Source of the DNA: Bilabrum cf. latius
Taxonomy: Eukaryota
Length of the DNA stretch: 64,000 nt
Direction of reading: 5' to 3'
Assembly: GCA_965178125.1 (NCBI GenBank)
Contig: OZ237773.1
Coordinates: 372,001-436,000, forward strand
In this document: positions 3,634 through 60,406 of the stretch, piece by piece
Layout of the letters: the number at the start of each line of letters is the position of its first letter
Position numbering within the stretch: the stretch's first letter is position 1
The notes under the pieces: model-generated
Seen by the model: only the letters and a program-made list of their open reading frames with translations
Told to the model about the DNA's origin: nothing
Databases searched by the model: none
Program-made: the position numbers and the translations under genes

Positions 3634-6600
3634 ATGAGTAGCGCTAGCGATGGTGAAATCGCGGGTGAAGTTAGGTTGGCACCTGGATCATTGGCAGGCA
3701 GCGAAGCTGGGCTCGCAGACCCTGGTGTGAGCAGCCCCAGCCCCTCGGATGGCGAAGGTGGGCAATTAGCATCGAGTAGCAGTGGAAATGATGGTCTGCA
3801 GGAAAGTGCGGGCGATTTGCCCTCTGCCTCCGCCAGCCAAGCAGCCGAGGGCGCATCGGGCGAGGGTGGAAGGGAGCAGATAAGCGAATTCGGAGAATCC
3901 AGCTAGCACATCAGCGCAGAATAGCCAAGTTTAGTCGCAGAGGTCATGTCAGCCGGAAAAAGAGAGAGCAAATAGGCAGGTGCTGGCCCCGATGACCCTC
4001 CCAGTGCCCAAGGAGGTGAAGATAAGGCTGACATTGTCAAGACAGACCAGAAGAAGGAGGTGGAGGAGACTGGTGACGAGGGCAATAGTGAAGATGAAGA
4101 TGAGAACGATAATCCAGGTACACGGGAGCAGGGCGGGGACAGGAATCCCAAGCATGGGGAGGGAGGAGGTAGGGCAGAGGTGGAGAAGGACGAGGACGAG
4201 GACGAGGAGAAGGGTGTTGCCACTCGTCACACCGAAATAAGCAATGACGGACCCAAGGCCCGCCCTGTTCCAAGCCAACGAGCGGTAAGCGCCCAGCTGG
4301 AGCTGGGGGCGTCCCAGTTCCCGGCACTGGTTGCAGCCCAGGGGCAGGGCCTGGGTCTTGGAATGCAAGAGGACGGCGGGGGCAAGCTGGAGCCCCTGGG
4401 GATGGTGCGAGCGTGCCTGGAGAAAGCGCATGCCGCCACGGTGGACTTGCTGCAGGCAGAGGGCCACCCGGTCCTGGCCCACAAATGGCTGGAGCGGGCT
4501 TGTATTGCTGCCTATGCCGTGCTTGCCGAAGTGCTGCAGGATGACCTGAAGGAACCTGCAGCAGCAGGGGGCATGCTTCGGGTCAGCACCGATGCACTGC
4601 CCCCCGCACTGGTGCAGCTGCTGCAGGGCCCATTCGTGACGATCGCACAGATGCTGTACATGCGGCGGTCCTCCGTGCAGGTGCAGACGCGCCTGCTACG
4701 GCTGTTTGGCGACGTGGCAGGCGTGGCTGGGGCCGGGGTACGGTATGGGGTGCCGGGGTGCTCACGTCTGCTAGCTGTGTTGGTGGGGATGCCGCTGCAT
4801 CCGGTGTACGGGAGACGCGCTCCCGATGGAAATGTGTTCTGCAATGTGAAGAAAGCAGCCGCGGACGGGGCAGGGCCCTCGGTGAGGAAGGAGGCCGCCG
4901 CGATGAGGAGGAGGCTGGGTCTGGAGCCCGTGGAAGACGAGCAGGAGGAGCGGAGACGGTGGTGGTGCGGCATGTGCGTGGACGGGATGGGCGTCGTGAG
5001 CAGGATGGTGTACGGCATGAAGACATCGGCGTGGGTGTCGGAGGGAACTGTCATGCAAAACCACGGCCACGAGAGGTATGTAGGCAGGCGGGTGGACGTG
5101 ACGGTGCGGGCCGGCAAGCGCGACGGCGGGCAGTTGCTGGACTTGGTGACCGGGCGAGTGGCTCGGTATCACGCCGCGTCCGGTGCGATCCTGGTGCTTT
5201 CCGAGGAAAGGGAGGTTGACAGGGCGGGGGATGATGTCTCCATCGTGGGGTCTGACGCTGGCTGGCGCTGGTTCGTGGTGGGGAGCGACGTGGATGTGGA
5301 GGCGGAGGACGGCAGCGTGTGGGAGGGCTGCAACGTGTCTGTGCGAGCCAACATGGAGGTGCCGTGCCAGATGACATTCTCTCGAGTTGATGCGGGCGTG
5401 CGACTAGCCGTTGAGCTGCAGTCTCCGCGCACCACCCGGTACGGTACTGTGCGCGCGGTTCGTCGCAGGGAGCAGCCTCGTGTGGGCGACGATGGTGAAC
5501 CGGAGCTTGATGACGACGGGAACGTGATCGTGCAGAAGCAATGCATGGTAGAGGTGCTGTACGATGCGCGGCCCATGGACGGTCTCAGAGAGGAGGTGGA
5601 CGTGCACTCCAGGGAACAGCTTGTCCGCTCCCAGGTGAGCTTCTTCCGGCACCTGCCTCTATTTGTTCCCGTGCTGAGTCGGCGCAGGCACCCGAGGTGC
5701 GATACAGGGAAAGAGAGCGCGCTGCAAGAGGGCGCCAACGGGACCAAGCCCAAGCAGGTCACGCGCGAAGACAAATAGTACCACAGATACGACGCCAGCG
5801 TGCCCGAGGGCGCCGATGCCGTGCCCAGCGATTGGAGCGCTTGGCAGGAGGCCAGTCTGTAGGTCGAGGGGTACAGACCCCCACCGCCCCCGCCTGCCGA
5901 TGGTGTGTTCTTGCCGTACGAGACACCAGAGAGCGACGAGGACCCTGGGACCCGCGTGGGGGACGCGCCTGACGACGAGGGAGTGATGCCAGACACGGAC
6001 TACAACCTGTTTCCCGAGCTCTTTTCCACTCTGCCGTCGGTGACCGACTTGCTGCAGATCAGGCAGCCAATGAGTGGGTACAAGCTGACGCGGTTCGACA
6101 TGATCAACAGAGCGGGAGCTATGGGCGCCTTCCACGCTGTCGCCGCGCGTCTGAAATCGTCCGCTGCAGCCACGGCCAAGCTGGCGTGCGGTGGCACGGA
6201 CGACCGTGAGGTGCCTGTGGTGGAAGGACCGCCCATCGGGCTGCGGTACGATGTGACGAGTGAGGTGGCCGCAGCATCGAGTGCGCCGGGGCCAGAACCA
6301 GTGCTTGTTCCGTCGGAGCAGCCCTTGACTCCACTGTCTCGGCTGCTAAGCAGCGAGTCAGCGGGCGCTGCCATCAACCTGCCTCTCGGCGTGCAGGAGC
6401 TGGAGCTGCTGGTGAGGCTGGTCAAGTATGCTGGGACCAACATGCAGGCCCACGCGGCCGCCTCGTTGTGTGGCACTGTGGCTGCCACCGTGCCATCCTC
6501 GGTGGCCTGGCACCCCCTTTCCATGATCAAACGGAGTGATTACGACGCTCTTACTGCTGCACTCAGGCTTTCAATGGCAGTAGGTAGTTCATATGGTAGA

Positions 6601-9600
6601 GAGCTGCCGGAGTTGCCACCCGAGGACTCGCTGGACACGACAAAGAGCGATCAAGCGAGCATGGCGGTCGAGGCATGGGCCGAGGATGGTGGGTCTGCGG
6701 GGCTGCAGGGGCTCTGGCGGTACGGACATGGCGGCAACCGCAGCAACCGGGGGAGCGCATCGGATCCGGAAGACAGTGGTGACCCGAAGGACTGGCCCGG
6801 GCCGCAGGAGAGACCAGCGGCGAGCGGAGCAGGAGCGGCCGGGGACGAGGGGAGCAGTCCAGGTGGCAGCACCCCGGACGAGCAGGGCGATGAAGCCACC
6901 CCCCTGCCCCCCGTCGTGTTTGTCCACCCCATGCGGTGCTGCTACGTGGCGTGGGTTGGATTACCGGCCGCTTTCGCCGCCGCCGGGTTCGAGCGGCTCG
7001 TCATGCACACGGAGCATGAGACTGACGAGGACATCCGTCAGGCGGCTCGGGAGGGACTGGAGGGCCCCTTGGAGGCTCTAGTGGACGCAAGGGAACGTCT
7101 CTCTGAGCTGATCAGCATCAACTGCGCCGCAGAGCGCGGGTACTTCAAGACTCGGGTGGAGGACACGCTAGGAGACGGCTATTGGCTGGAGCTTTACTGC
7201 CGGTGCCTATCAGTGAGCAAGGTGAGCTACAAGACCAAGGCCGTCCGTTGCCTGGTATCGATCGAGAACAAGCACAGGCGGACGGCGCCTCCCGCCAATG
7301 CCAGAGAGGACACGGAGAGACTGTGGGGGGCGGGGCTGGAGGGCGGGGGCGGGAGCGGGGGCAATGGTCAAGGCAGTGCGGGTGCAGGGCAGGGGCAAGA
7401 GGGGAACAGTCCCCCTGTACTTGAAGACCCGGGCGTCGACTACACCGGCGATGATGAGTACTGGTCTGGATTTCAGCTGGAGGACGGCGGCCCATTGGCC
7501 CCCAAGAGGAGGCCGCTTGTGGTGCTGCCGGGCATGGAGGCATGGAACCCCGCGGGCAGAGAGGCCTGCACCGTTAATTCCAGTGGTGTCAGCGGCGCCA
7601 GCAGCGCTGGCAGTGCAGCGGGCCCGTCCTCGGGCTCCTCTGCGATTCCCACCGAGGAGCGTCCGGATTCACCCGTGGCAGCCGGGGCAACCGCTGCCGG
7701 CATGCCGTTGGTGCCGCTGCCAGGCTGTCTCAAGGTCGACTGCAGGCAACAGATGCAGTACGCAGCCTTCCTGGTCGGGTCCAGGGTGCTGGAGAGGTGC
7801 TTTGGGGAGCCGGACAAGGACGGGAAGGGCGGCGGCGGCGACTTGCACCAGCAGCTGATTGGCCAGACCAGGGAGCTGTGGGTGTTCCTGGCCCGCGTGG
7901 GGCGGCTCCGGCCTGCACAGGTCACTCACCTGTTCTTGTGCTCTGCAGGGCAGCACCACACGGTGGCCCGTCCCCTGCTGCGGCTCCTCCTTGCCATCGT
8001 GCCCACTCTGCCTAGGAGCGCAAGGGAGGGCGTGGCTCAGCTCGTGGGTAAGATCCCATTCGACACATGGACGGACGTGACGATCCAGTTCTGCAGAGAC
8101 CTGACTTGCGTGTGCATGCAGGCAGATAGAAATGAGATGGCGAGACAGGCGGCCGAGAGAGCTGAGGCCGTTGCGGACGGGAAAGGGGCAGATAGTATCA
8201 AGGCCGCGCCGCTTGGGGTCAGGCTGTATGCGCTGCCACTCCTGTGGAGGTACCTGCACGATGGGAGCTGCCTTCGGGCGGGCTCCCATGATCGGAGCAA
8301 CGGGGGCGCCCCTCCGCTTGCGCAGGTCAGCACAGCACTGGCAGCGATCGCCGACATCGTGCAGTACACGGCCAGCGGGTGCGGGGAGCTGTGGCAGTGG
8401 CGTGGTGCAGACACGGGTGGTACTCACCAGCAGGACATGACAGGTCCCTTCAGCGAGGAGCACTAGCAGGAACAGGCCGGGAATGTGGACGCCTCGATTG
8501 GGGCAGGTGGTGGCGGGGCCGGAATCGACATCATGGAGCAGGTGCCCCTGACTGAGCAGCAGAAACAGACGAGACGGCGCACCTGCAGGGCAGCAGTCTT
8601 CCTCACTTCGGGCCTGCAGTGGCCGCACGAGGCAAGTGTGCACACGGGCATCACTAGTCCACCCATCGAAGAGCAGGAGATCGCTGCCATGTAGCAGCCC
8701 TCCAGCGGCGCGGGGACGCATGGCCCCGGTGCACTCACGATATGCCGCCCCAGCGTCGACGACGTGTTCCGATACCCCAAGCTGCCCTCGCTGCCCGTTG
8801 CCATCGACAACGATCAGGCCATCCCGGGGCTCAACGAGGACAGCCTGCCGCGGCGACTCCCCATTACCCTACAGCCTGTGAGGGGTAGCAGGGCCGAGCA
8901 GCAGCCGCCGCATTCAGAGCCTGTGCCACTGCACATGGGCGTGCTGGGTGATGTGATCCGACTGGTGCTAATGCGCCTGGCACTCTCCAATGTGTCGGAG
9001 AACAGGAGCGTGCCGCAGTCCCTGAGGCTGTTCGTGCTGCTGCTCCGCGGGGTCCAGGCCAGCGAGCCGGCGGCGGCGGGGCGAGGACTATCCGGATTCT
9101 TCCAGCGGGGCCAGTCCCCGGACCTTGGAACCAAGGGGGGCCTGGAGGGGGACCCTTCCCCGGCGCTGGTGACGGATGGCAGGTACGCAGGAACTTCCGC
9201 TGCCATCGTGCACCAGCTGTCGAGGCGTAGCTAGGAGGGCAGCGTTCTCAACGTGTTTTTCTTTGACATGCAGGCGTACGCACAAACGATGCAGTCGCTC
9301 ATTTTCATGAACGCTCAGCGGCACAGGGAGACGCTGGAGAGAGAGGCGGTGAAGCGCATCCTGGCACGGCAGAGGATTGCCTCGCCGCCTAGGGCGAGCG
9401 GAGCGGCTGGTCGGCTGTTGGGAGACGGCGGCGGCTTGGTCGAAGAAGAGGGTGGTATCGGTGCAATGAAGTCGGGCTGGAACGAGAGAAGTAACAGTGA
9501 CGAGTACAGCGGAGACGGCGGGGCCGCCGCTTCGTCGTCACACTCGGGAACCGTGGGCAGCGCTGCTGGTGGTGCCATGGGAGGGCCGGACACGGCTTCT

Positions 9601-12600
9601 TCCGTTCGGTCGCACGTCGAGGCTGCGTCAGTTGCGTCTGGCCTGGAGCTGGGCGGGGACGGCGCCGGGTATGACACGTCGCTGCCCCGCAACCCGGGCA
9701 CTGAGACGGTGATCCTGGGCGGCGAGTCGCAAGCGGCTGGGGGAGGCGCGGCTGCAGCGGCGGCGGGGGGGGCGGCAGCTGGGGCTGGTGCAAGCTCAGG
9801 TGGTGACTCCACCGGACCCGTGGTGGATACAGATGACGCCGATTTCGTGCCGATGGTGCAGCTGCCCGACAGCGTGACCCGGATGATGCGCGCCAAAGGA
9901 ATGGACCCGGAGGCCGAGTCGCAGCGGAAGATGGTCCAGCAGGAACTGGCTGACATGCACGCAAAGGGGGTGGCTGTAGGGGTGGGCAAAGGAGCAGGGG
10001 CCTTGCGCCTGCCGCCCGAGATGCTGACACCGCGAGGCAGCGCCTATTCCCACCTGGAGCAGGTTCGCTCTCGGCTGTACTTCCTCGAGCAGGTGCTCGT
10101 GTGCAGCAACCTTCGACTGCAGCTGAGTGAGATGCAGCACGGGCAGATCCTCTGGCGGTCGCTGATTGGGACTGCACTCACCCGGGAGTCGCTGCACCTC
10201 GGTCTCATGTGGATGGCTCGCATGGCCCGGCCGGCTCTGCTGGGAGCATCTGCCGGAGACTCGCTTACGTCACTGCCGGGCGACGAGCTGAGCGCGGGCA
10301 CGTACATGTCTGTCTCTCCGGCGGGTAAGCACCGCCGCTGCGTGCCCCTGAGGTTCCTGCCAAGCGACGAGCGTGCGAACGCGGAGCAGGCTCCCGCGGG
10401 GTCGGTGGGTGTCAAGAGCACATCCGCGAGGTGCTCCCCTTTGGCCACCCGACAGCTCTTCACTCCAAAGTTCACGCTGTGGATCTTCAAGCAGCTGTGC
10501 AAGTGGCTGAGGCGAGACACCGGCCCGCTCAGCACGGCCAGCTCTGCTGGCAGCGTGCAGTCAACTGACAGCGGCACTCCGCTGGGCATGAGCTCGCCCA
10601 GGTCCAGGGGAGGGGTGCGTATCGGTAGCCCGGCAGTGGGGCGCACAGGCTCCGGGCTCGGGGGCAGGGAGATCGACGGCGCGATGTTGCTTCCCTCGGA
10701 TGCCCTGGTGACCGCGGGCGAGGTGGAGGCAAGGGTATTCTTCCAGTTCTTCGTGGACTACAACGTCAATCACGCGTCTCTCGCGGTGGAGTCCATGCAG
10801 GCCACAGGGAACAAGGCTCCGGCGCAGTTCCTGCCTAGGCTACCAGCCACCCGTGACCTGGGTCACATCGCGGCGGCAGGCGAGGTAGTCGGGTTGCAGC
10901 CTGAGACCGCGGGCGGGGCTCCACCGACCACCGGCGGCGCGCTGGCCGTCCGCAGCACCGGGCGACTCAACCGATACCAGAAGCACCTGCCCGGGCTCAA
11001 GATCCTGTGGCTGTTTGCACTCTACTGCAGGAACGAAGCAGTTGCTAAGGCGGCAGGGGGGCTACTGGTGCTACTGCACACGCAGACCGGCAACGATCTG
11101 GGCCCGAGCCCCGCGCACCGCCACGCCGTGGCCGGCTCCATGCTTCAAACTGCGCTCATGCAGGTAAGACGGTCTCTGGACGGGAGGGACCGGCTTCTCA
11201 CTCGGCTGGTGCAGAGCCCCTCTGTGTCGCTGGCCCTGCAGGGTGCCTCCTCCGGTGGTGCAGATGCGGAGGGTGAAGATCAAGGGACAGAGCCGTCGCC
11301 GCGGGATGGATCGGTAAGTGGTGGTCATGCCGGTGCTTCTGGTAGCGCGCTCGTGGCATCGGGGGCTGCTGGCAGGCTCGGGCTATCCCAAGCAGCTGTG
11401 GATCGTATCCTGGCTGTCCCTGCCGTGTCCGAGGCAAGACAGCGGCTCAAAGGGTACGACAGGAGCGAGATGCCTGCGGTGCAGCGGGCACTGGAGCTGG
11501 CCGCAAGGCTATTGCACGAGGCAGAGTCTACGGGGGCGGGCAGCGGGAGCGGGGCCGCCGCTGGAGGTGCAGGAGGGTCGGTGGCCAAAGGGCAGCACGG
11601 GATCCTCCCCCCTGAAACCATCTTGGCAGCCGCTGCTATCGATGAGGCGGATGATTCCACGGCCATCGGCGCAGCGGGCGGCGGAGCTGGGAGGGGATTG
11701 CGGGCTAGAACAGTGCGGATTGACATCGAGGCGCCCACGGTGACGCATTCCATGATGACGAGCGTGAAACCCAGCACGACGGTGGCGCAGCTGTGTCATC
11801 GCGTGGCCGCTGTCACTGGCTGGCCCCCCCAGGAGGTGGGCTTCCGATTCAGGGAGAAGCTCCTGCCCCTGCCGCTTCGAGACGATCGGACCAAGGCCAT
11901 CGGGCCAGAGGCAGCCAGGCTGGTCCCCGAGACCGACGTACTGCACACGGTCAGGAGGAGTGCCCCGAGGGGGTACCCCAATCTCGAGCTCAGCATGAAG
12001 CCCGCCACATCGACGGCCGGGCTCTCTGGGGGACCTCACCAGCTGGGTCACGACCCTGACTGGCAGCAGCTCGAGACCACCACTCTGTACCAGGCCGGGC
12101 TTTGGGACCAGTCCGTGATGCAGGCACAGCTCGTGCTCGTGGCGTACCCGAGGTGCGGGCCAGAGAGGGTGCGGGAGGCGCTGCGTGAGCTTATCGGCTC
12201 GAGGCTTCCCAGGGAGCTCGAGCGGAGGATGCTGTCGGCTGGTCGCACCCATGTCGCCACCACCAGGGTGCAGGGAATGGGGGTGCAGGCACTGCCCACG
12301 GACGCGCAGCTGCTGGCCCAGCTCAGCGGAGAGATTCCAGAGACGCACGATGCCGCTTCCTTGGGCTGGTACAGGCAGACGGACTCCTGCTTCCCGCAGC
12401 TGAGGGCTTCCGTGCTGGCCCTCAGCGAACACGAGGGAACCTTCGATTTCGATGCCACCGCTAGCCTGGAGCCGTTTGAGGAGCCCGTGCCATCCACACA
12501 TGTTGCCACGGCTAGCGGTGGAAGCGGGTCATCACCTGGGCCGGTCAGTGGAGCAGGCGGGTCATCCTCGCCTGGTCACCGCGCAGCACAGCAGGCGCGA

Positions 12601-15600
12601 GCAGGTGCCACCTCGGCTGGAACGTCTGTGTACAGGGTGATGCTGGGTGCAGTCGCTTGCAGCGCGCCAGAGACCGGGACAGCCCATTCCGTTCTTACTG
12701 CTGGCACGGCAGAGCGCGCGGCAGATCTGGCCATGGGCCGTCTGGCGGGCGGGGATTGCCCCCAAGGGCCGCTGCCTGCTGCCGTTGCCCGTCTGCTGGC
12801 CAGCCCAGGGAGCGCACTGGGCCCCGCTGCCGCCAGTCTTGCCGAGGTGCTCGCAGAGGAGGTGCGTCTGGAGAGCGCCGGGGTGGGCGGTAGACAGGAG
12901 AGCGGAGGGTCAGGGGGGGCTAGTGGCGCTGGAGCATCCTCTTCCTCCTCCTCGTCCATGGGAGGAAGCGGGAGTCCTCTGCTGATGGGCGGGACTCGGA
13001 CCAGGGAGAGGCGGAGGAGGCCGCTCTGGTGGCTGCCAGCGCGGTGACGCAATGGTCAGCGAGGGGCGCACTCCCGGCCATCGTGGCAGGGCTGAGACAC
13101 AGCTCCACGCTGAGGCAGGCACTCTTCCGCTTTATGCTCCTGTGGCTGCCCGTGGGTGCGGCCCTGCTCCCTGGGCCGATCCGATGCCGCCAACGAAGTG
13201 ACCGGAGGGTCCTTTTCTCCTCCTCCTTGTCATCCTCCTCCTCGTCGTCGACTCGCGTGCCCGAAGGGTTCTCCCCCCTGCTGGCCCACGCATCGTCAGG
13301 GGCCGCGGCTACGCGGGCGGCACAGACGATCGGAGCAGTGGGTGTGTCCCGGCTCTGTGAGGCATCCTCACCCCTCGTGGCCCCGCCCCCACCCGAGGCT
13401 GCCGTCCTGTCAGGGCTTGCACACGCGAGACATGCATCTGTGGGTCGCGGCGCCACAGGGGGAAGGCAAGCTGCCAGGCAGTCACCTCCCGGCCGTGGAA
13501 GGGATGACAGTGAGACGATCTATAGGATGCTAACGGCTCTGCTGGGCTTCGGTGGCAGGCTGGGAAGCTCTGCGTGGCGGCTGCTGCTGCAGCTGCCCAC
13601 TCGGGAGGAAGCTGTTCGCGCCGTGGTGTCCATGGGAGGGGCCTCGGATGGAACAGCCGACGGCGTGCTGCGCTGGAGCGGGGTACTGGGAGGCGGCGGT
13701 GGTGTGTTCCTCAGGCTGTACCGCATGCTGGTGCTGGACTCGGCCATCCACGGGGCTTGGCCACCTCCCGTGCCTCTGCTGGCGCAAGCGGCGGCAGCAG
13801 GATCTGGCTCGGCAGCTGCGCGGCAGCGCCGATCTGCAGGGGGACAGGGACAGGGACAGGCCGGTCTGCGACCGCCCGCCACCGAGCAAGAGAGTCAGCG
13901 CGCGGTATGGGTGGCTCGATTTGCCAGGTCGGGAGGCGTGGCGCACTGCACCCGAGCCCTTGGGTCAGCTGTTGAGCCACTGAGGTATCGGTTCGCCTCC
14001 GAGCCTGCTGCATCCAGGCTGGCCCTTTGGTCCGAATCTGCCCACCTGTGCCGGTGCCTGCTGACTGCGCTATCCATGGACCCTGCCTTCGTGCCAGTGG
14101 GCTTTGACGGTGTGGGTAGCGCGGCGGTGGGACCAGCGGCCCGTGCTGCGGCTGTGCTCACCTATGGGCTGGATGCAGCCGCGGCAGCGATCGAAGTGAA
14201 GGATGGCAGGCAGGGGCAGGACGCTGCTCCTTGGGGCATGCGGGCCGAATCCATGGCCGGTGGGGCGGGGGCCGCGAGCGGGCTGCTCGGCCTAGGCGGG
14301 GTGGAGGGCGCGGTCAGGGCGCTCACCAGGGGCATGGTGGCTGCCAGGCTGCGAGCCGTGGCGCCCGTGGTGGCCCCTCGCTCCCTGCTGGCTGAGGCAG
14401 GTGACCTGTCTCTAGTGGCACAGCACTCGCTGAGGCTGCTTCTTGCCGCCGCTGCCGAATCTAGGCCAAGCAGCCGTGCGCCTGCCGAGGCAGTAGCCGC
14501 CGCGGGCAGTGCTGCCGCTGTAGCCGCGCATCTGCTCACCGCTTGCTGCCTCAGTGACGGGGCCGCAGCTCGTTGGCTGCTCGGCCGGACGGACCTCGGG
14601 AAAGTGCTGGCAAAGCTGCTTCTAGTGGCCGGCCCCGCCGTGCGACTGCACTCGTCACAGGCACTCCTGCGGCTCTGTAGGAGCGGGCTGCTTTTGTCCG
14701 CCGAGGGCGAGGCAGAGGCAGGTGAGGGCAGCGAGGGTAGGGCCTCTCCAAGTGGAGTCGATGGATCGGGGGCAGGGGCAGGGGCAGGAGCGGGGAGGGG
14801 TGCGCGTACAGCGGCCGAAACCATCCTGAGGCACCTGCTCATGCTGCTGCCGCGGTGCAGAAGCAAGCGCGCGGCTGGAAGGTGCGGGCATTTCTATGCT
14901 CTGCTGTCGGCCGTGTTCGCCCACTGCCTGAGGGGCGGTGGGCCCGATGCCACTGGCCCGCGGCCCGCGTCGGCTGTGGCCCATGGGCTCGCTGCTCATA
15001 TGCGATCCGACGTGGAGGCTGCTGCCGCTCGGGGAACACAGGCCGCCGAGAAGGTGGCCAATGCTGCGGCTGCATAGCGGGGTCAGGTGCTTCGGCAGCA
15101 GATCGCGCGGGCCTGGCAGTCGGCGGCGCGGGGCAGGGCAGAGTCGATGCACCTGGCCCTCGACCCCACCGTGGGGGCAGGCGCAGGGGGTGCCTCCCCG
15201 TGCATGCAGCGCACTCAGACTGACGTCACCGAAGACGATGCCACTGGGATCATGAGCCGCACCTATTCTGATGGTGTGACGAGTGTGGTGGATGGAGCAG
15301 ATAGCGGAGGACTGCCAGGCTCTGACGCAGCCCCTGGACTCACGCCCGCCCAGTGGCGGATGCAGCGGTCACCTTCGCTAGTAGCCATGGGATTCGATCC
15401 CCCGGTCACCCCCTAGAGACCGGGAGCATCGGGAATGCCTAGTGCTCTGGAGCTGACCCCGGTGCTGGGCGTGCCGGGGTCCAGCGTAAGCTAGCAAGGC
15501 ACCCCCAGGCTGGGGGCAGTGGGCGCCGCAGTAGCAGATGCAGCTGGAGGACCTGAGGTGGCCGCTCTGCGGAACCGGCGGGATCTTGACGTGCCGGTGT

Positions 15601-17039: not shown

Positions 17040-17080
<41 letters not shown>

Positions 17081-25577: not shown

Positions 25578-25743
25578 AATTAATATGCATGGATACAAAG
25601 CCACTATTCGTGCAAGTCTGTGCACTTCGTGTGCTGCGATGCCATTGAGGGGCTGGGCAGGACCCAGGCCGGCTCTCGCAATCCGCTGACATCCCCTCAT
25701 TCCTCCGACATCTCGCGCGCCTACTCGTTCCCGCAGAGCGCTA

Positions 25744-25920
25744 CATCACACGGCCCTCGATCCATCACACGGCCCTCGATCCATCACACGGCCCTCGATC
25801 CATCACACGGCCCTCGATCCATCACACGGCCCTCGATCCATCACACGGCCCTCGATCCATCACACGGCCCCAGTCCCCATCACACGGCCCTCGATCCATC
25901 ACACGGCCCCAGTCCCCATC
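25744..25920. repeat. 19/20-bp minisatellite (~9 units) overlapping the stop of the FabI-like gene
   Basis: CATCACACGGCCCTCGATC x7 plus two CATCACACGGCCCCAGTCCC variants; no spacers. Confidence 0.92.
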
Positions 25921-27110: not shown

Positions 27111-27247
27111 AATTTTCGAAATTGGTCTTCAGTAATGAGTGCAATACGGATAGCAGTGGAGTATGCCGTGATGCTCCGAATCTATCATGATGGCAACTCA
27201 ATTTGCGGCGACATTCATACCACCATTTCGAAGATTCCCACGCTATC

Positions 27248-37500: not shown

Positions 37501-37673
37501 CCGCCATGCAGCGGCGCGTCACTGCTGATGAGACGGATCCCGAAAAAAGTGAGCGCTGGGCGCTTTCGTAGCTTAGCCCGGGGCTGGGACGCAATGTCTC
37601 CTGCGCTCTAGGCATAATGATAGATAGATTTGCACAAACGAGCGGACTTGCGCACAATTCCGGAGCGTTTCAT
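34557..37673 (-). CDS. CBS-pair plus PTC7-type PP2C phosphatase fusion, Arg-rich mitochondrial-like N-terminus
   Basis: CBS repeats (SVAEAVRHL...GSVILV...MLTARDL; PDTPLREALRVM...RSLPVID...GVVTLKDL). PP2C motifs GVSDGVGDW, GSATAC, ANLGDSGF, FNFPYQL, LATDGLFDN, GGMPDDVTV. TAGs at 37608, 37446, 37341, 35448 and 35364; TGA at 34557. Confidence 0.85.
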
Positions 37674-37826
37674 CGTTCTCGAGCTTGATGTGCAACCACC
37701 CGCAGTTGCAGCGGGACCGGTCACATGAAATGCGCGGCGCAGCGAAAGCGCTCTGTGCCCAACGATGCCAGAATAAACGATAGTGTCCATGATTCCAGCG
37801 CAAAAAATGCCCCAGTATAATCACCA

Positions 37827-41805: not shown

Positions 41806-41838
<33 letters not shown>

Positions 41839-46674: not shown

Positions 46675-46717
<43 letters not shown>

Positions 46718-49700: not shown

Positions 49701-50571
49701 GTGAATGATGGGCTCCGGCTCGCGCGTGTGCAGGTGCTCCAGCCCCTCGAGGATCTGCCTGCACCACCGCTTGATGGCCTTGAGCTTCACACGGTGGCCC
49801 GGCCCCGCCCCAGGGGCGGTAGATCCCCCGGATGAAGAGAGTGTCTTTGTGGGAGCCACCCTGGAGACCGAGGCCCCTGCCCCGAGCACCCCTCCGGCCC
49901 CCTAGGCAGAGGCAGAGGCTCCGTGCACGAAGCTGAGGAGGTCACCGGACCTAACGAACTCCGTAATCATGTGCACCTTGCCTGTCTTTTCGTCCTCCCA
50001 GCTGTCGTAAATCTGCATGACGTGCTTGTGCTTGAGCATGCCCGCCACCTTTGCTTCCCGCCTCACTCTGTCCCTGTCTTTGTCGTCCATCGCGCGAGTG
50101 TCGATGATGGACCATGCTACTGTGCGACCGGAACCAGTGTCGATGGCTTCATAGCTGCGGTAGGTAGGCACGTTTGGACTCCAAAGAGGGAGTTTGGGCT
50201 CCAAAGAGGTCGCGAGCAGGGGCCAGAGCAACGTGTGCGCGAATAGCGAGCGAGGCAGTGAGCCTCAAATCCAAGCAAAAATACACCAACTCTCACACTT
50301 TCTTCTGTGCTCCTTCTCCAATCAGTTTGTCCCACTGCGGTACACATTTATAGAAGGTACTACTACGCGCAGTTCGCGTCGACGACAACAGCAACTGGTG
50401 CGAAGCGACCTCAGCACACACTACCATCCGTTCCTATCACCGGGAGCATCACGAAAGGATAGCATGACGTAGTTCGAATATTTGAAAGCTACTCACCCTC
50501 TTGTACTACTTCCCTCTCATCTCGACGAATGCATCAGTGGTGCTCGCCCTCAGTCCCGACCCTTCCGCCAT
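40455..50571 (-). CDS. WNK: WNK-family Ser/Thr kinase with very long low-complexity C-terminus (~3270 aa); exons 50497-50571, 50297-50334, 40455-50154
   Basis: IGEGAQKKVYEAID (Lys in the Gly loop), VAWS in place of VAIK, WCRQILEGLEHLH, PIIHRDIKCSN, KICDFG, GTPNFM, DIYAFGL.VLEMVT..PY.EC. A single frame runs through many TAGs to TGA 40455. Confidence 0.85.
43810..43922 (-). repeat. (GGTGCT)n coding microsatellite encoding (GA)n in the WNK tail
   Basis: GCACCA repeats on the + strand, interrupted twice by GCATCA. Confidence 0.85.
46677..46778 (-). repeat. (GAG-YAG)n coding hexamer repeat encoding (EQ)n
   Basis: 17 Gln positions: 11 CAG and 6 TAG (46716, 46728, 46758, 46764, 46770, 46776). Confidence 0.9.
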
Positions 50572-52235: not shown

Positions 52236-53418
52236 TCACACCGCCCCTGCTCCCTGGAACTCCTCGCTGTCGTTCGCGAACGCGCCGTCAGCCACGGGGG
52301 CAGCCCCCGTTTCTCTCAAAGCGCTCTCTGGCAGTGCCCCCTTCCCCGCCCGCTACCTGCTCCCAGACCCGCTCGCACTCATCACACCGCCCCCCTTGGA
52401 ACCGTCCCCCGCCACGGCTTGCTCGAAGGCAGCGCCCTCCCAGTCGGTATCCCCGCCCTGCCCCTGCGCCTGCCCCTGCCCCTGCCCCTCACCCCTCCCC
52501 TGCGCAGCACCGCTGCCATTCTGGCTCCGAGTCGATCCCTCCCGCTCCCCAGCTGGCAGTGCGCTTCCGAATCGCGCCGAAGCCGCCCCTGCCCCAGGCC
52601 GGCCTCCCCCGGACACGAACCCCGCCCGCCTGGCGATCTCTGCCCTGCGGAGGACCTCGTTCAGGTACCCCGCGGCCCCACCCACCAGCAGCCCCACCGG
52701 ATAGCAGAAATAAAGCTCGTCCTCCCACAGTATCCTCCGCATGGCCGCCCCCCTGTAGTCCTCGATGTCCACCACCCCGAACACGAAGCCGAAGAGGAAG
52801 CCCAGCAGACTGCACGAAAACAGGATCACGTTGATCTGGCTCGCACTGCCGATCAGACCCACGCGGAGCTCCGCGGCTCGGCGGCGGTCGTCACCGGACG
52901 ATGACGACGCGAGCTACTCGGCATGTGGGTCTCGTCTGGCGCACATGACGCCACCAATGTCCGTGACAGAGAAGGCGAACGCGAAGCAGATGGACGTCCC
53001 AAGTGTCGCGTACATGGGGACTTTCACCACGGGGCTCAGCTGGAACAGGTTCTCGTCGAGGAGGAAGCACACTAGGCCTGAAACGACGACGAGGCCAGAA
53101 AACGCGTAGAGCTGGACAAAACTTCGGCCCTCGTGCTGCCGGGTGAGCATCTGGACTCGGAGGGCAAGCAACCCACCAATGAGGGCAAGCAATATACCAA
53201 AGTCTGCGATTGTGTGAATGGGTGTACTAAATTCTTCTATAGCAAGCGCACAGATACGAAAATGGAGACATGATTGCAATAAACTCACAGAATGAAAAGA
53301 AGTTGGACACGGAAATCTCGAGCAGCGTTGAGTTCGCAATCCAAGACACTCCCATGCCCAGGAGGCCCCCAATCACTATTGAGACAAAATGTCTGCATTC
53401 GCACGCACTACCCGACAT
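52236..53418 (-). CDS. Multi-pass membrane protein of unknown function; 2 exons
   Basis: ATG 53418, intron 53204-53288, about 6 hydrophobic segments (LLEIS, PMYATLGTSICFA, FGFVFGVVDIED). TAGs at 52914 and 52353; TGA at 52236. Confidence 0.75.
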
Positions 53419-54139
53419 GAAAACTAAGTTGTACGCGTCTGATTGGGCCCGAAGTGAGGAAGGTCGTGTGATGAGTGACGCTGGCTCTGGGCTCCACTGC
53501 ACACGCACACCCCCTTCCCAGTACACTGCCACCCGGTACGATGACCACAAATATGTGCTGCTTTCTGCGCACCTCTGCGCGTATCTATGGGCACCCCTTG
53601 ATCAAGCTTGCGCACCCGTGCACACGCCCCTTGCTGCACCCGGCTGGCACACAACATTGCCACTGCCAGCCGTGCCCGTCTGCAAGCTTGCCATTGGCCT
53701 TGGCCTCAGGCTGGCCAGTTGCAAGCGGTGGGTCACTGCGGCATGCCCCGCCCAGCATCGTGCGGCATCCACTCCGCAGTCCATCTACTCCTCTACCCGC
53801 ACCCGCCATTGTGCCAACCCAATCCCCGCAGCAAGCCCCCGGGCCGGGCCCAGCGAGCTAGATCTACTCACCGACGGGGCAGGTCGGGAGCGGGGCAAGC
53901 CTCCGCTGGCAGGCGCACTGCCTGGGCCACTGCTAGTGGAGGAGGAAACCATACCATACTGAAGGCAGAGTCTCACTGTATCGGCACAAAGCCGCTGCTA
54001 CGCACCAACTTAGCTCTCACTCGCACGAACGCCCCGTCGATGCGGGTCATTCGCTGCAATTTCTGAAACGATGAAGACAAATACTGGCTCCGCCAAAGTG
54101 CAACACCGCAAGCTCACGACTGGGCCACCGGTCCTCGCA

Positions 54140-56692
54140 ATGGGAGCCGGTGTGATTGTTGTAGTGGTATTACTTATCCTTGCTGCGATAGCGGCTGGGG
54201 TGTACTACTGGATGTATCTTCGGCAGAAGCGCCAGGAAGACAAAGTGCTCAACCGCGTCGGCGAGGATCCGTTCGCTCCCGGGGCGGGAGGGCCCGGCAC
54301 GGTATGGGGAGGCGGAGCAGGAGATTATGTTCTTATTGAGGACGGTGCGATTGAGTCAAGAGGGGGCGACGGCTCGCATGCTTCCGGCCAAAATCGCGGA
54401 TCGGCTGCCGAACGCCGCACGAGGGAAGAAGCCCAGCTCGTGGCCGCTGCGCTCGACCCTGCGGTAATGGAACTGCGTCTATACAAAAATGAGGTGCACA
54501 AAATTGATTTATTGTTCCCGAACGGCTGGGCCAAAGAGGAGGCCGAGTCGACGGAAGCGGTGTGCGTCCAGTTCAGCCACGAGCTCGATTTGGGCCAAGG
54601 GAGCACTCCGAAGTACTTGAGGTTCTCTGTCAGCTGGGACGACGTGTCCTTCGTGTCCATGTCCTCGATGAAGTTCGCCACGAACATGGCCGACCGCCTG
54701 CCCCGCATGGTGGCCGGAGCTCGCATCCTGGACGTGTCCCCGTACAGGGGCACCCCCAGCGCGGCTGCCTCCTTCGGGGGAACAGGGACTGTTGGCGGCG
54801 GAGGACCAGGGGAGGGGCTGGGCGGTGGTGGCTAGGACTGGTCGCACGGCGTGACCGTGGGGGGCAGGGGTACCAGCCACAGAGACGCCTACCAGGTGAC
54901 CTACCGGGTGCCGGTGGGGGCCCCGCAGGAGGGGGGAGGGGACGGGAGTGGCGGGAGGGGGAATACCCCTGGGGGTAGCGGGGGTCACGAGGACCCCTCG
55001 ATGGACCTGCAGGTGTGGAACGTGATTTTGCTCAGCGGGGTGGGGCGCAGGGGGCGCAGGTCCGATTCCCACTGGAAGGCATTCACGCTCAGCTTCGGGT
55101 GTCCCGCTTCGGTCGCCCCGGGGGCGATGCCCCTGGCGCAGGCACTGGTGGAGGCATTCACCATCCGGCCAGAGGCTAGGCGCGCACAGGCCCCCGTCCG
55201 GGCACCCCGCGGCATGGGCCGGCACAGGCGGCACAGCAGCAGCGGGGGCTCGGAGACCTCCTTCTCCAGCCTGGGCACGGGTGTGACGAGTGCGGGGGGG
55301 CTCGGGGGGTCGTCCACGGCGACCTCCTCCTCTTCGGATCCCGAGAGCGACAGGGGCTCCGCGGCGGGTGACAGTGTGACGAGTGCGGACACGGGGGGTC
55401 TGGAGGGCGAGGGCGGCGTGTCTGTGCCAACTGGAAGGAGCCACAGGGTGTCCAGCGTGGGCAGCGCGGGCTCGTCTGCCTCGAGGCGGGGCAGGGGCGG
55501 GGGTCGCGGGGGCAGGGGCGGGGGCAGCAGTGGTCGGCGCGGTGGTGGTGTGACGAGTGGTGGTGGCCCCGGGTGGGTGCAGGACGCGCTGCGGGGGAGG
55601 AGCTTCGCCTCCGAGAGCGAGTTCTCGCAGTCCTTCTCGGACAGGGAGGGACTCGGAGTCTCGATGCACTCGTCACACATGGGGTCCCCCGCGGTGCCGC
55701 GTGGCATCGCCGGGCTGTCTGCGGCAAGGGCCAGGGCGGCAGCAGCTGCGGGCAAGGGGGGGGCTCCATCCGGTGGGGGGGGGCTGTCGCCGGGAGGTGA
55801 CGCAGGGGGGGTGGCGGGGATCCAGCTAGGGAGTCCCCTGCCCCCGGGCCTCAGGGGACGGACCCCCGGGGTGGGGACACGGGGGGGGCAATCCAGCGGT
55901 ACCCCTGTCGCGGGCTCCAACGGGGCGGCCAAGCAGGACGGGGGAAGTTTCGGCTCCGGATCCATGGAGCGCATGTACGCCGCGGGGGTGCCTGCCTCTG
56001 CCTCCGCCATCGCCTCGAGCAAGCGGCAGAGGCGGGGGTAGCGCGGTGTGACGAGTGGTGCGCGTCGGAGCCTGGCCTCGGGCGCACCGGCCTCGTCCGC
56101 GACCCCTGATGTGACGAGTGACCTGTCGGAGCGAACCGTCCGCGCCGCCGGCCTCGCCCTCCTTGTTCCCTCCTCCTGGGCCGCGGGCCGCCCCGAGGCG
56201 GTGCAGGCCAGGGGGGGGGGCAGGCCGAGCACGGTGCGGGCCAGCTGGCAGTCGGGTCCGCTGGCTGGGGGAGAAGGTGTGACGAGTGGTGGTGCGGTGC
56301 GCGACTTGTGGGGCGAGGTGAACGTGATGTGTCTGGTACAGGGGGGTGGCGGTGTGACGAGCGAGGGGGGTGTGGTCAAGCAGCTGCGCGCCTTTTTCCA
56401 GTCGCAGATGCAGAAGTCGGGAGCCCAACCTGCCGGCGCCGGCAGCGGCGTTGTTCCCTCGCCGCTGCCCGAGGGCGCAGAGGCGTACCGGCTGGAGAGG
56501 CAAGGTGTGCCTGTGGTGGCGGTGTCGGCGGTGGGCGGTTTCGCCAGGGCAGGCGCGCATGCAGGGGTGGTCGGGTACGTCGTGACGGTCTCGTTCGCGG
56601 CAAAGGATCCGGAGTCGGAAAGCAGCGCAGACCGGTGGGGGTGGGAGCTGTCTCGGCAGGTGCTCGGGTCGCTGCGGGGAAGCGACGAGTGA
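54140..56692 (+). CDS. N-terminally anchored protein of unknown function
   Basis: N-terminal TM, one frame through TAG 54833 and 56039 to TGA 56690. Confidence 0.7.
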
Positions 56693-57004
56693 TTTGAGCG
56701 GGTGGGGCGGATGGGGGGATAGACCTGCATGGAGGGGCAAGCACCGCAGCTCCGCTGCAGCTTTGCACGGTTTGCGATCTAGTGCTTGCCCTTGCCTTCG
56801 CACTGCTTCACCTGCATGCACAGCACCGCGGCAGGGCTGAAATGCTGGCAGTCGTCACAGCTCGTTCCGGTTCGAGGAGCTGCCGGCGGTTTTGAAGTCG
56901 GAGTGCCAGGAAAGAACGTTATTGTTCGTCTGTGGTATCCGGTCGTGTCACAGGGACATTTTCTATCAGCGCTGCATTTGACCCGATACCGTCCAACACA
57001 TTCA

Positions 57005-60000
57005 ATGTCCGGGCGGGCGTCGGACTCAGCGGCGTCCGGCAGCTGGGCGGCGAGAACACCAAACCCCCGGGGACGTAGCCCCCCGAGGCCTCACACTGGC
57101 ACATTAGGTACTCCAAACAGTCAAGCCGGCGAGATTTACGGCGATGAAATCCAAGATCGTGCGCCGGACGATCCTGGCTCGAAGCTGTCACGAGTGCTGC
57201 GCGCAGCTAGAGCTCTAGCGTCCTCGTCACAACACAAAGGCGGACACGTGCAACTTATCTCAAGAGGGATGCTCCTCGTTGCATCACAGCTACGGGACGC
57301 ACAGGCCGCCAAGGCCCGGGCCGAAGCTGCTTTGGATCTGTCGCAGAGGCAGCTGCAGCACGCGCTCGCTCTCGGCCTCTCGACCGAGCGGCAGCCCGGC
57401 GTAGACCGCTCTCGAATAATACAGTCTAGAAGTCGGGCCAGGTCCATCCGGAGTAGCACACGAGGCAGTGCGCCGAGCAGCGGGCACCCGTCCCCGACGG
57501 CCCGCCGCTCCCGCGCATCCTGCCCTGAGGCTGCCCCCAGCTCAGCAGGGCATGCTGGTGCTGGCGCTAGCGGGGGCGACCAGGACGTCTTGGGGTCCGC
57601 CGCGTCTGCCATCCGCTCCTCCGAATTGGAGCGAGCACGAGCACTTGCTCGGCAGGCCATCGAGGCGGCCGCGCGCGCGGATGCAGACGCGAGCACTCGC
57701 CGGGAGGAGGTCGCGGGTGCGGTCGAGGCCCAGGACGCGCTGGCTGGGAGGGTCCGAGAGCTGGAGGCGCAGCTGGTGGACGCGAGGGCGGACGCACAAG
57801 GGGCCATCGAGGAGGCCAGGGAACAAGCGAGCGATGCCAGGGAACAAGCGGGCCGGATGGCGGAGGCCTGCGACAGGCTAAGGAGGGAGGGGGCGGCGCG
57901 GGAGCGGGTGGCGGGGGAGGCCGCGGGGGCGCTGGAGGCGCGGGCCAGTCGGGCGGAGGAGGAAATGAGGGCGGAGCGGGCGATGAGGGAACAAGCGGAG
58001 GAGGGGCGGGAGGCGGCGCTGCAGGAGGCGAGGCAGGCCGCGAGTCAGGCGGCCAAGGCGCTTAGGAGAGCGGCGGCTGCGCGCGCGAAAGCAGATGCCG
58101 TGCGCAAGGAACTAGCCGTTGAGCGGGAGAAGAAGGCCGGGGATGTGGCCCGCATGAGTGCACTGAGGAGGAGGGTGAGGCAGCTGGAAAAGGAGCTGGA
58201 GAGGGCCCGGCTCCAGGGAACAATGAGGAGGAGGGACGCGGCTCGGCTGGCGGCGCTGGAGGACATGCAGGACCGGATGAAGACGAGGAGTGGGGGTGGG
58301 GCGAGTACGGGGGTCTAGGCCAAGGGAGGGGGGAGCCAGGGGGCGCAGGAGGGTGTGATGAGTGCGTCCATGTCCCGGTGGCCAGGGAACGTTCCTCCCG
58401 GTTCCCTGCCGGAGGACGAGGACGCCAGAAGCGAAGTGGGCGGGTGCAGAGGGGGGCAGCAGTCCCTGGATTCAGATGCGGGCGCGTCGGTGTTGAGGTG
58501 GAGGCGGCGGTGTGACGAGTTAGAGGAGGCAGCAGAGGGCCTGCGGTGGGACCTGACGGCAGCCATGGAGGTGGCGGGGGAGGCGCGAGCGGGGCTTGCG
58601 AGGGCGAGGGGCAGGGAGGAGGCGGCGCTGGGGGCGCTGCAGCGGGTGGGGGAGGGGCTTGCGGCGGTGGCTGGCAGGGCCAGGGCGGTGTGTGACGAGT
58701 GCGGGCGGGCGGGTGTTGGAGTGTCTGCGAGTCGGCTTCTGCTGGAGGAGGTGTTGAGGCTTCGGGCTCTGATGTCTGGTGGCGGGGGCCGAGGCGGTGA
58801 GGGTGGGGGAACTGTGAGCAGAGCAGCTGGCGAAAAAGAAGGCGAAGGGGGTAGGGTGCATGTGCGAGGGGGCGGTGGGAGCAGCGCGGCGGCTGCATCG
58901 CTGTCCCCTGACCAAGAAGCCATGCTGGCGAGGACGGGCGAGCTGCTGCGGGAGGCGCACGAGAGGCAGGCTGAGGCGGTGAGGAGACAGGCTTGGCTTG
59001 AGGAGGAGAACGAGAGGCTGAGGAGAGAGGTGGAGGGATGGAATGGGCAGGGGCTTGCATAGGACGGCGGCATTGGCGCATAGGACATGCAGGGGGCGAC
59101 AATAGTCTCAGGCTCAGGCGCTGCTTCCAAGGAGGGGACAGCCACGAATGCTGCGGAGGCAGGGGCAGGGACAGTGCCGGTGATACCAGCACCAGAAGTA
59201 GTGGCCATGCCAAAGCCAATGGGTGGCAGCAGCAAGGAATCGGGAGTGGTCAGACCTGAAGAGGAGGAGGATACAGGAACTGCGGTAGGGGCCGGAACGG
59301 GGTCACAGGGGCGCGAAAATAGTGAGAATGATGGACAGGAGCAAGAGCACGAGCAGATCCGAGAAGAGGACCATGACCATGACCGGGACCGGGACCGGGA
59401 CCAGAATCAGGATCAGGATCAGGAGGGTGAGCTGGACGACGCCTCCCAGCAGCTGCTGCAGCACATGGCAGCGCAGATGGAGAGGCCGGGCGGGGGTGTA
59501 TCCAGCGCGCTAGAGGTATTCCTCGCCCATGAGGGGGAGGGAGAGGGGGAGAGTGGTCAGGGTGGTGACTCCTCTGACGTCACTGGTGGCGCTGACGTGG
59601 CGCAGATGCTCGCACAGGCACCCCCTGTCCTGGACGCATACGGTGCCTCAGGGGATCACGAGGAGCAAGAGCAAGAACAGGAACAAGAAGAGGGCCATGG
59701 TCATGGACATGGACAGGGACAGGATCATGGATAGGGACAGTCAGAGGGGGCAGATCCAAGCCCGGTATCTGCCCAGACCGCATCCACGTACGTTGCGGGT
59801 CAGCCACCAGCGGTTGCAACCTCGCCTTCTCTTGTGGTTGCAACCACGCAGCCTGGTGCAGCCACGGCCAGCGGGCCATCCTCGTCGTCCTCCAATGCCA
59901 CTATCAATGCCACTGCCAATGCCCCGGCCCAGGCACAGGCCCGGGCCCGGGCCCGGGCACAGGGGCAGGGACAGCCAGCGACCCCGCCGAGGAGTCGAAG

Positions 60001-60406
60001 CACGCACCGCGCGCCCGCTGGATCTGGATCTGGATCTGTCGGTGTGACGAGTGCATCGTCACCCTCCGTGCCCCCGCAGCTGGCGCAGGGAGCCCACGAG
60101 GGGGTGTCCGGTCCCCCAGGCGGGGGGGGTTCACCCCGGGGGGGTGCTCCCGGGCGGGCTGCACCCCTGCCCAGGGCACGGGGAGCGGGGGCGGGCGCTG
60201 GGCTAGGCCGGGGTCCGGCCGCGGGCATCGGTGCATCTGGGAGTGCTGGGGGGCAGCAGTAGCAGCAGCAGCAGGTCTAGAGCAGGCAGGAGCCCCCGGC
60301 TGGCGGTGGCGATGACTCGGAGCCAGAAACCAGGGCTGCGCCCCGGGGACAAGGGGACGAGGAGGACCCGGCGGAGGACCAGGATGGCGCCGAGGGCGGG
60401 GTGTGA
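57005..60406 (+). CDS. Long coiled-coil protein
   Basis: One frame through TAG 58316, 59060, 59081, 59732, 60260 and 60278 to TGA 60404. Ala/Glu/Arg-rich heptads. Confidence 0.7.

Follow-up and report, generated by a model that had tools for sequence, protein, structure and literature searches.

The stretch of DNA analysed here, called the window below, comprises 64 kb of contig OZ237773.1 of Bilabrum cf. latius (positions 372,001 to 436,000), and the element in question is a dispersed 12-mer, GTGTGACGAGTG, that is superimposed on its genes. The window is eukaryotic DNA with a GC content of 65%, and RNA-derived contigs reveal GT-AG introns of 85-162 nt on its minus strand. Pfam and PDB searches identified a UCH protease, a sulfatase, a P450, a CBS-PP2C phosphatase of the PTC7 type, a WNK-like kinase, a methyltransferase and a FabI-like reductase. 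The named top matches of the phosphatase are stramenopiles, which may be taken as a weak taxonomic hint. It should be noted that the gene models are based on open reading frames (ORFs) and were made in this analysis, and that the RNA evidence consists of assembled contigs, in which information on strand, start and level is not contained.

Interpretation of the locus depends on its genetic code. The sequence-only reading that preceded this work had built its gene models on the standard code, an assumption that had to be abandoned because the organism reads TAG as glutamine. ORFs with the best codon usage chain in frame (30 of 33 adjacent pairs lie in the same frame), and at 28 of the 30 same-frame junctions TAG is the sole type of stop between them. 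The lengths of the three longest ORFs sum to 2,854 codons under the standard code and to 9,449 when TAG is taken as sense; reading TGA or TAA as sense lengthens almost no ORF in the window. Alignments place in-frame TAG codons opposite an invariant glutamine of PTC7 phosphatases, opposite a glutamine of the sulfatase 7oz8 and opposite a glutamine in the sister-species orthologue P0087 (examples of in-frame TAG lie at 35448-35450 on the minus strand, 28358-28360 and 56039-56041), and the UCH domain is complete under this reading (profile positions 1-254). About 87 in-frame TAG codons occur within ORFs, which amounts to 10% of glutamine codons. There is no TAA inside ORFs, the ORFs are identical under table 6, and the stop codon of the P450 gene is TGA. 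Judged from these frames and alignments, the organism decodes UAG as glutamine and uses UGA as its usual stop, an arrangement resembling NCBI table 15. Standard-code annotation of the lineage would consequently be wrong, with ORFs broken at each TAG and false introns inserted. Literature searches on UAG reassignment, with supplementary files outside their range, returned no report of this lineage's code. A minus-strand gene at 4.0-4.6 kb, indicated weakly by standard-code scans of codon usage and GC phase, is superseded by the ORFs that read TAG as glutamine.

GTGTGACGAGTG is the most frequent non-microsatellite 12-mer of the window, with 19 exact copies, 11 on the plus and 8 on the minus strand, or about one per 3.4 kb. 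All of them lie at the coordinates and on the strands given by the sequence-only reading, whose chance expectation of 0.01 copy was also reproduced; the ten near-copies it named exist as well, within 0-2 bases of the positions it gave, eight with one mismatch (6251, 14649, 19825, 29490, 33460, 56109, 56352 and 58510) and two with two (25346 and 33480). In dinucleotide shuffles, 0.01 copy is expected and 19 were reached in none of 100 trials, and a third-order Markov model likewise predicts 0.01. Within ORFs, the 17 exact copies compare with a mean of 0.006 when codon order is shuffled and with 0.15 when synonymous codons are shuffled and the proteins kept (500 shuffles each). The enrichment thus survives both codon- and dinucleotide-matched nulls. 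With up to two mismatches allowed, there are 47 copies (19 exact, 16 with one mismatch and 12 with two) against 6.24 expected.

That the word is an adapter, a contaminant, an assembly artefact or an accident of composition has, in our opinion, a practically negligible chance of being true. No evidence supporting such an origin was found; the four null models all give 0.15 copies or fewer, and the positions of the copies respect reading frames. Moreover, the word occurs in RNA-derived contigs of other studies, in sister-species proteins (as VTS, see below) and in metagenome contigs of other projects, and the copy at 49586 is unchanged in a spliced RNA contig from two other runs. In the literature, exact GTGTGACGAGTG was encountered only in primer lists, and searches on over-represented oligomers, which did not extend to supplementary files, found no report of the word.

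The limits of the 12-mer are sharp. Information content is about 2 bits inside the word and drops to about 0.3 on either side of it, where a weak preference for G at position -1 is the sole exception, and the bases flanking the copies, which are dispersed rather than tandem, are unrelated. Substitutions within the word are unevenly placed: positions 5, 6, 8 and 9 are unchanged in all 16 one-mismatch copies, an outcome whose chance by hand calculation is (8/12)^16 = 0.0015 if mismatches spread evenly. Transitions account for 14 of the 16 single changes, three of them converting the central CpG to TpG. Graded position specificity of this kind would be typical of a site that is read.

The same profile bears on the proposal that the copies are insertion scars, that is, blocks written by a mobile element or a templated-insertion enzyme (as an excision footprint, an abortive reverse-transcript tag or filler DNA) and then left to neutral decay, their in-frame length of 12, or of 9 plus a GTG duplication, permitting survival inside ORFs. 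Sharp edges and unrelated flanks agree with such an origin, as do a length that is a multiple of three, the GTG at both ends of the word and the tendency of partial copies to keep the 3′ end (the 3′-anchored 8-mer is found 35 times and the 5′-anchored 8-mer 25 times). The counts with zero, one and two mismatches can also be fitted, by hand, with one decay parameter of about 6.6% per base. However, decay that spares positions 5, 6, 8 and 9 altogether is not uniform, and the repeat search of the 64 kb recovered microsatellites and one 19-nt minisatellite and neither a transposon nor a dispersed repeat family that might include a parent element. Together with the frame bias and the sister-species comparison described below, these observations make insertion scars a very unlikely source of the word.

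The placement of copies relative to genes was assessed by a census of copies with at most one mismatch, in ORFs that read TAG as glutamine and against a background of near-matches at 4-5 mismatches. Among the 31 ORF copies, 20 are read in the sense frame xGT-GTG-ACG-AGT-G, which encodes (G/S/R)VTS(G/A) and is called the VTS frame below, three lie in the sense frame encoding CDE and eight are antisense; the sense frame that would yield TGA is not used by any of the 31. The 17 exact ORF copies are distributed in the same manner (12 in the VTS frame, one in the CDE frame and four antisense). The sequence-only reading had stated that the word occurs in either orientation and in several frames; this is correct, but the distribution is heavily skewed, with 12 of the 17 exact copies in a single frame. 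Its premise that the word is indifferent to frame and orientation is not supported, since 20 of 31 copies occupy one sense frame that takes up 24% of background near-matches (p=2e-6). The sense share, 23 of 31 copies, compares with 64% of background near-matches (p=0.35). The sense excess of the 12-mer is therefore not beyond composition, whereas the frame bias is. Per available near-match, copies in the VTS frame are about five times as dense as in other frames. This bias indicates that the places in which copies survive are determined to a large extent by selection on the encoded peptide, and the ratio of VTS to CDE copies (20:3) means that insertion scars would require additional selection in any case.

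Selection on the peptide does not account for the word itself. Fifteen of the 18 in-frame VTS tripeptides are spelt GTGACGAGT (GTG-ACG-AGT), a spelling that codon usage predicts for 2%; three have other spellings, which is no more than the 3-8 counted for permuted tripeptides, and the residues flanking VTS are not conserved. The 12-mer is constrained at the nucleotide and not the peptide level, and antisense copies are kept equally well. These results uphold two claims of the sequence-only reading, namely that the word is a nucleotide-level signal laid over coding sequence and that peptide selection cannot explain it, the latter also being supported by the copies in an intron and a 3′ untranslated region (UTR). 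A coding by-product, arising from a selected peptide motif (GVTSG) or from recent duplication of low-complexity repeats, would be consistent with the 20 of 31 ORF copies that encode xVTSx, with the location of copies in Gly/Ser/Ala-rich regions and with tandem GVTSD or GVTSA arrays in relatives. It is contradicted by the scarcity of other spellings (3 of 18), by the synonymous shuffle (0.15 against 17), by the 11 of 31 ORF copies in other frames or antisense, by the four non-coding copies, and by copies in the window that are not tandem and whose flanks are not conserved. A peptide-selection origin is largely refuted by the codon-spelling test and the synonymous shuffle and is essentially excluded; for the coding by-product as a whole we see only an extremely small chance.

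Copies that are antisense or lie outside ORFs are informative about what reads the word. Antisense copies comprise four exact and four one-mismatch examples, and copies in the direction of the gene, coding and non-coding taken together, comprise 15 exact and 12 one-mismatch examples. Taking half of 0.01, the expectation for exact antisense copies would be about 0.005, which puts their enrichment at an estimated thousandfold. The antisense set is no more decayed than the sense set, which favours a factor that reads double-stranded DNA. The 10 kb of non-ORF DNA hold two exact and two one-mismatch copies. One exact copy (29472-29483, +) occupies bases 8-19 of the spliceosomal intron 29465-29585 of the sulfatase gene, in gene direction, and is followed in the same intron by a one-mismatch copy (29490-29501, +; G10A). 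This intron is verified by homology: in the alignment with 7oz8, the last residue of exon 1 corresponds to 407 and the first of exon 2 to 409. The other exact copy (32550-32561, +) lies in the 3′UTR, 31 nt past the TGA of the single-exon P450 gene 30951-32519. A further one-mismatch copy with a CpG-to-TpG change (53466-53477, +) is outside ORFs. Of the introns and 3′UTR in which the sequence-only reading had placed copies, one intron and the one 3′UTR are confirmed, but the other presumed introns are probably coding through TAG.

In genes with known domains, copies fall in inserts that are missing from homologues, specifically in the kinase activation loop, in PP2C and in the FabI-like enzyme. 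Low-complexity inserts inside conserved domains comprise 177 residues of the kinase, about 96 of the sulfatase and about 100 of PP2C. The copy-bearing inserts, which are specific to the lineage, are translated, because the frame of the PP2C insert is kept across four indels between two species and the kinase copy is covered by a spliced RNA contig. In the CBS-PP2C gene 34557-37820 (-), there are two neighbouring exact sense copies in the VTS frame, 34937-34948 (-; GSVTSGE), which lies in the PP2C insert and is VTS in the sister species too, and 35015-35026 (-; SGVTSGE), where the sister species has GGASGE. Next to them is a one-mismatch copy, 35039-35050 (-; T4C), which reads GATSE, the sister species having GVTSE; a third exact copy of the gene, 36251-36262 (-), reads GGVTSAP. 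In the giant kinase ORF 40455-50264 (-; 3,269 codons with TAG as glutamine), the exact copies 41516-41527 (-; GGVTSVP) and 49586-49597 (-; KRVTSAP) are both sense in the VTS frame, the latter near the start of the 177-residue activation-loop insert of the WNK-like kinase and present in spliced RNA contigs; the one-mismatch copy 44295-44306 (+) is antisense. The copy in the insert of the enoyl-ACP-reductase-like gene 25899-27128 (-) is exact and antisense (26329-26340, +; read TRH).

Two further giant ORFs on the plus strand, again with TAG as glutamine, are 3337-13047 (3,236 codons) and 12480-21314 (2,944 codons), the second with the UCH domain. An exact copy at 4221-4232 (-) is antisense in the first and read TRH. 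The UCH-domain ORF carries an exact sense copy in the VTS frame (15274-15285, +; SDGVTSVV) and an exact antisense copy read LVT (15793-15804, -). One-mismatch copies are found at 6251-6262 (+) and 19825-19836 (+), both sense in the VTS frame, at 14649-14660 (-), antisense, at 1940-1951 (+), antisense in ORF 635-3088 (-), and at 2047-2058 (-), sense in the VTS frame. The one at 31814-31825 (+) lies in conserved P450 sequence (LRDEW, identical in the sister species) and may be a chance near-match. Another at 52376-52387 (-) is sense in the VTS frame and reads VMS after a CpG-to-TpG change. The copy at 33460-33471 (+; G12A) is antisense to an unverified ORF. A two-mismatch twin at 33480, 20 nt away and likewise within 33460-33491, has the same change of G12 to A, which suggests a local duplication after that change.

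Copies are distributed unevenly: the ORF 53963-56692 (+), whose translation predicts a single-pass membrane protein, has eight against 1.7 expected (P about 4e-4). Its exact sense copies in the VTS frame are 55281-55292, 55374-55385 and 56277-56288 (all +), retained in the sister species; 55548-55559 (+), where the sister species has GGG instead at equal length; and 56046-56057 (+), which begins 4 nt past an in-frame TAG whose counterpart in the sister species is Q. An exact antisense copy, 55667-55678 (-), is read HSSH and is retained as such in the sister species. There are also two one-mismatch copies, 56109-56120 (+; G1A), reading DVTSD where the sister species has GVTSD, and 56352-56363 (+; T11C with VTS unchanged), which is retained. 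The following ORF, 56693-60406 (+), contains the sole exact copy in the CDE frame (58690-58701, +; sense, AVCDECG); an exact copy in the VTS frame lies at 60042-60053 (+; sense, VGVTSAS), and one-mismatch sense copies are at 58353-58364 (+; VTS frame, CpG to TpG) and 58510-58521 (+; CDE frame).

The sister species is represented by three or four proteins, among them a P450 that is 90% identical. Of 10 orthologous sense sites, 7 encode VTS in this species as well, and the single antisense site likewise keeps HSSH; the flanks of orthologous sites are 87-92% identical. The motif residues are therefore no better conserved than their flanks, and copies turn over. At 35039 and 56109, the sister species apparently has the exact word and the window a transition. 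Neither of the two presence/absence differences is a clean 9- or 12-base indel, which speaks against insertion scars: at 35015 the sister species, with GAS and no motif, is four residues longer, and at 55548 VTS is replaced by GGG between identical flanks without change in length. It should be noted that the exchange of VTS for GGG at the latter site affects the whole block, as it might if the block had been written.

The word is not confined to the window. Metagenome data were scanned for two GTGTGACGAGTG copies within 30 nt, which returned at least 120 loci, the majority of them short tandem repeats that are unrelated, lie in DNA with 36-73% GC and carry no information on the dispersed word. 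Eighteen contigs among the matches listed, 16 from one sample and two from another, with 55-62% GC, were taken as belonging to the clade of the organism. Having been chosen for carrying a motif pair, these clade contigs were evaluated over 103 kb beyond the selecting pair, in which we counted 14 further motif clusters among the matches listed. As in the window, ORFs are extended by reading TAG alone as sense, in one example from 526 to 2,708 codons. Also among the matches listed, the 61 copies in clade contigs comprise 33 that are sense in the VTS frame, two in the CDE frame, 13 antisense and 13 outside large ORFs. The contigs contain small arrays as well as dispersed copies, and tandem GVTSD or GVTSA units are present. 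Nucleotide and translated comparisons detected no similarity between any locus and the window, nor among the clade loci. The 12-mer is thus a property of a clade with the variant code, because mutually dissimilar contigs that read TAG as sense share the word and its frame bias.

Other observations were made in the same collection. Two loci with the motif pair are in viral contigs. In four loci unrelated to the window (L050, L107, L111 and L114), the longest ORFs become severalfold longer when TGA is read as sense, in L050 from 704 to 3,594 codons; this may reflect either another variant code or a shadow-frame effect in high-GC DNA. The 10-mer palindrome GGTTGCAACC is over-represented, with four dispersed sites in the window and 12 in clade contigs (within L002-L119), and so are the 10-mers CGCCGCGCAA (5 in the window and 10 in clade contigs) and GATCGGAGCA (4 and 7). 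In locus L023, the palindrome directly adjoins a further word, CAGGGAACA, that is considered below.

Any explanation has to accommodate the established properties of the 12-mer: its enrichment, its constraint at the nucleotide level, its occurrence on either strand and outside coding sequence, the filter exerted by reading frame, the invariant core, the turnover of copies and the presence across the clade. Our preferred reading, to which we give somewhat less than even confidence, is that GTGTGACGAGTG is a clade-specific recognition word and that a putative sequence-specific factor reads it on double-stranded DNA. This factor would be conserved in the protist clade that decodes UAG as glutamine. 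Copies would be continually gained and lost, persisting where they do little harm; inside ORFs they would be almost entirely restricted to the frame that encodes a small polar peptide, (G/S)-V-T-S-(G/A), and most would reside in low-complexity inserts that evolve fast and belong to very long proteins. The reader would act on DNA, not RNA, and the number of copies would be upheld by selection on site number or by biased transmission, for which gene conversion is one possible route. A four-zinc-finger array reads a site of about 12 bp. The sharp edges of the word, its invariant core and its conservation across species of differing base composition favour a sequence-specific reader, and DNA is favoured as its substrate because antisense copies are about thousandfold enriched and well kept, the strand bias is within composition and non-coding copies exist.

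The principal competitor is a sense-strand RNA element. An RNA-binding protein or a guide RNA would read the word in long, intron-poor pre-mRNAs and tag transcripts for processing, export, stability or translation; the frame would be set by what the peptide tolerates and antisense copies would be by-products. Several observations weigh for this alternative and against a DNA word. Fifteen of the 19 exact copies, and all four non-ORF copies, share the direction of their own or the adjacent gene. Exon, intron and 3′UTR carry copies alike, and the copy at 49586 is found in spliced RNA contigs. VTS-frame copies are about five times denser per available near-match than non-coding ones (12 per 384 against 2 per 311); this ratio is not expected from a frame-blind DNA process followed by purifying selection, except if selection also acts against copies in non-coding DNA. 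The gene with eight copies looks more like the bearer of a transcript-specific tag. Furthermore, the word CAGGGAACA, often lengthened to CCAGGGAACAAGG, has 16 exact copies in the window against 0.53 expected, and all 16 are sense, across all three frames; eight of its sites are 5610, 28495, 31786, 38592 (-), 49409 (-), 57817, 57838 and 58214. It is also enriched in clade contigs, with 22 sense and 7 antisense copies and 5 outside ORFs. CAGGGAACA behaves as a strand-specific signal, unlike the 12-mer, and since it is strictly sense in the window, sense-strand RNA signals do exist in the lineage. Two more general points add to these: all inferences rest on 64 kb plus about 103 kb of motif-selected contigs, and, to our knowledge, no eukaryotic mechanism favours a short DNA word in this manner.

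The RNA element is nevertheless opposed by the antisense copies (four exact and four with one mismatch), which are kept like sense copies at an estimated thousandfold over chance, and by an enrichment that is not confined to the transcribed strand, the sense excess being within background. RNA folding around the 19 exact copies revealed nothing distinctive (pairing probability 0.69, against 0.62 with a standard deviation of 0.21 at random places), and Rfam searches of the window at gathering thresholds gave no match. We therefore regard an RNA element as rather unlikely, though as a serious competitor of the DNA word.

Several simpler identities were considered and rejected. The word misfits the GTGAG(T/A) consensus of a 5′ splice site or U1 site; a 12-nt micro-intron is incompatible with its retention in the RNA contig; and a telomere-like repeat does not agree with clade contigs that lack 12-nt tandems. 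A microsatellite or tandem repeat is excluded by copies in the window that are not head to tail and have unrelated flanks. If the word served as an off-frame stop ("ambush"), TGA in the +1 frame should far outnumber the motif, according to a rough hand estimate from base frequencies by codon position. Ectopic conversion between (GGN)n tracts would require such flanks, which inspection found at only about 6 of the 19 copies. A likeness to the hammerhead core or C-box is imperfect and has no Rfam match.

The surroundings of the copies offer further observations. The three giant ORFs are rich in Gly, Ala and Ser, with single conserved domains (UCH and the WNK-like kinase) embedded in them. ORFs 3337-13047 (+) and 12480-21314 (+) overlap by 567 nt in different frames and could be one gene with an intron or a frameshift. 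ORFs 53963-56692 and 56693-60406 share a frame and are split by one in-frame TGA at 56690-56692, which could separate two genes, lie in an intron or be subject to UGA read-through or recoding. The coding hexa- and dodecanucleotide microsatellites of the giant kinase ORF, e.g., (GCACCA)n and (TGCTCC)n, lie at 43786-43949, 46663-46790 and 40966-41057, and some of them hold in-frame TAG on the coding minus strand (CTA on the plus strand). The 19-nt minisatellite (25720-25929; unit CGATCCATCACACGGCCCT, about 10 copies) lies upstream of the FabI-like gene region and extends into it. A tRNA gene search of the window found none.

Several known systems can be compared with the 12-mer. Chi (read by RecBCD or AddAB), KOPS and HIP1 are 8-mers that serve bacterial enzymes and are oriented with replication; Chi-type words are G-rich, are read on DNA, lie in gene bodies at one per few kb and favour the coding strand, partly through codon compatibility. 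The present word is likewise an over-represented G-rich word in gene bodies at similar spacing and mostly on the coding strand, but a 12-mer. The DSR (determinant of selective removal) hexamers bound by Mmi1 in fission yeast and exonic enhancers are degenerate, strand-specific 6-8-mers. They resemble the 12-mer in having several, mostly sense copies in particular transcripts, coding or non-coding, and differ from it in that the 12-mer is exact and enriched in antisense copies too. Transposon excision footprints and introner-type insertions are short, constant, sharp-ended sequences of in-frame length in genes. The 12-mer shares the shortness, the sharp ends, the genic location and the in-frame length, but with no clean sister-species indel, no parent element in the window and non-uniform decay.

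A likeness exists also to the uptake signal sequences (USS) of Pasteurellaceae and the 12-mer DNA uptake sequences (DUS) of Neisseriaceae, which are also short exact words, in orders-of-magnitude excess, on both strands and common to related species. According to one study, uptake sequences in coding regions show a frame bias, occupy poorly conserved protein positions and encode residues that are not additionally conserved (PMC2817400), as is the case for the 12-mer here. The host of the 12-mer is, however, a eukaryote with spliceosomal introns, whereas uptake words belong to naturally competent bacteria. For this reason, the parallel is an analogy of behaviour and not of membership.

Signature words laid over bacterial coding sequence have each led to a mechanism, namely DNA uptake, RecBCD control and chromosome segregation. 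We know of no eukaryotic case of an exact genome-wide signature word over coding sequence, and literature searches for one found none. It is conceivable, though in our opinion quite unlikely, that the 12-mer is a eukaryotic counterpart of the bacterial "self" words of the uptake or Chi type, being spread and renewed in the nuclear genomes of a protist clade that reads UAG as glutamine, either as the product of a molecular drive or as a mark of genome identity. The drive would consist of motif-biased gene conversion or of a motif-writing enzyme, and proteins would accommodate the word as GVTSG insertions. The material lends itself to direct tests, as it provides a defined 12-bp probe, a sister species in which copies have been gained and lost, and one gene that carries eight copies. 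The 12-mer has been conserved across species that differ by 3-10 GC points, and its footprint in proteins is tracts of GVTSG.

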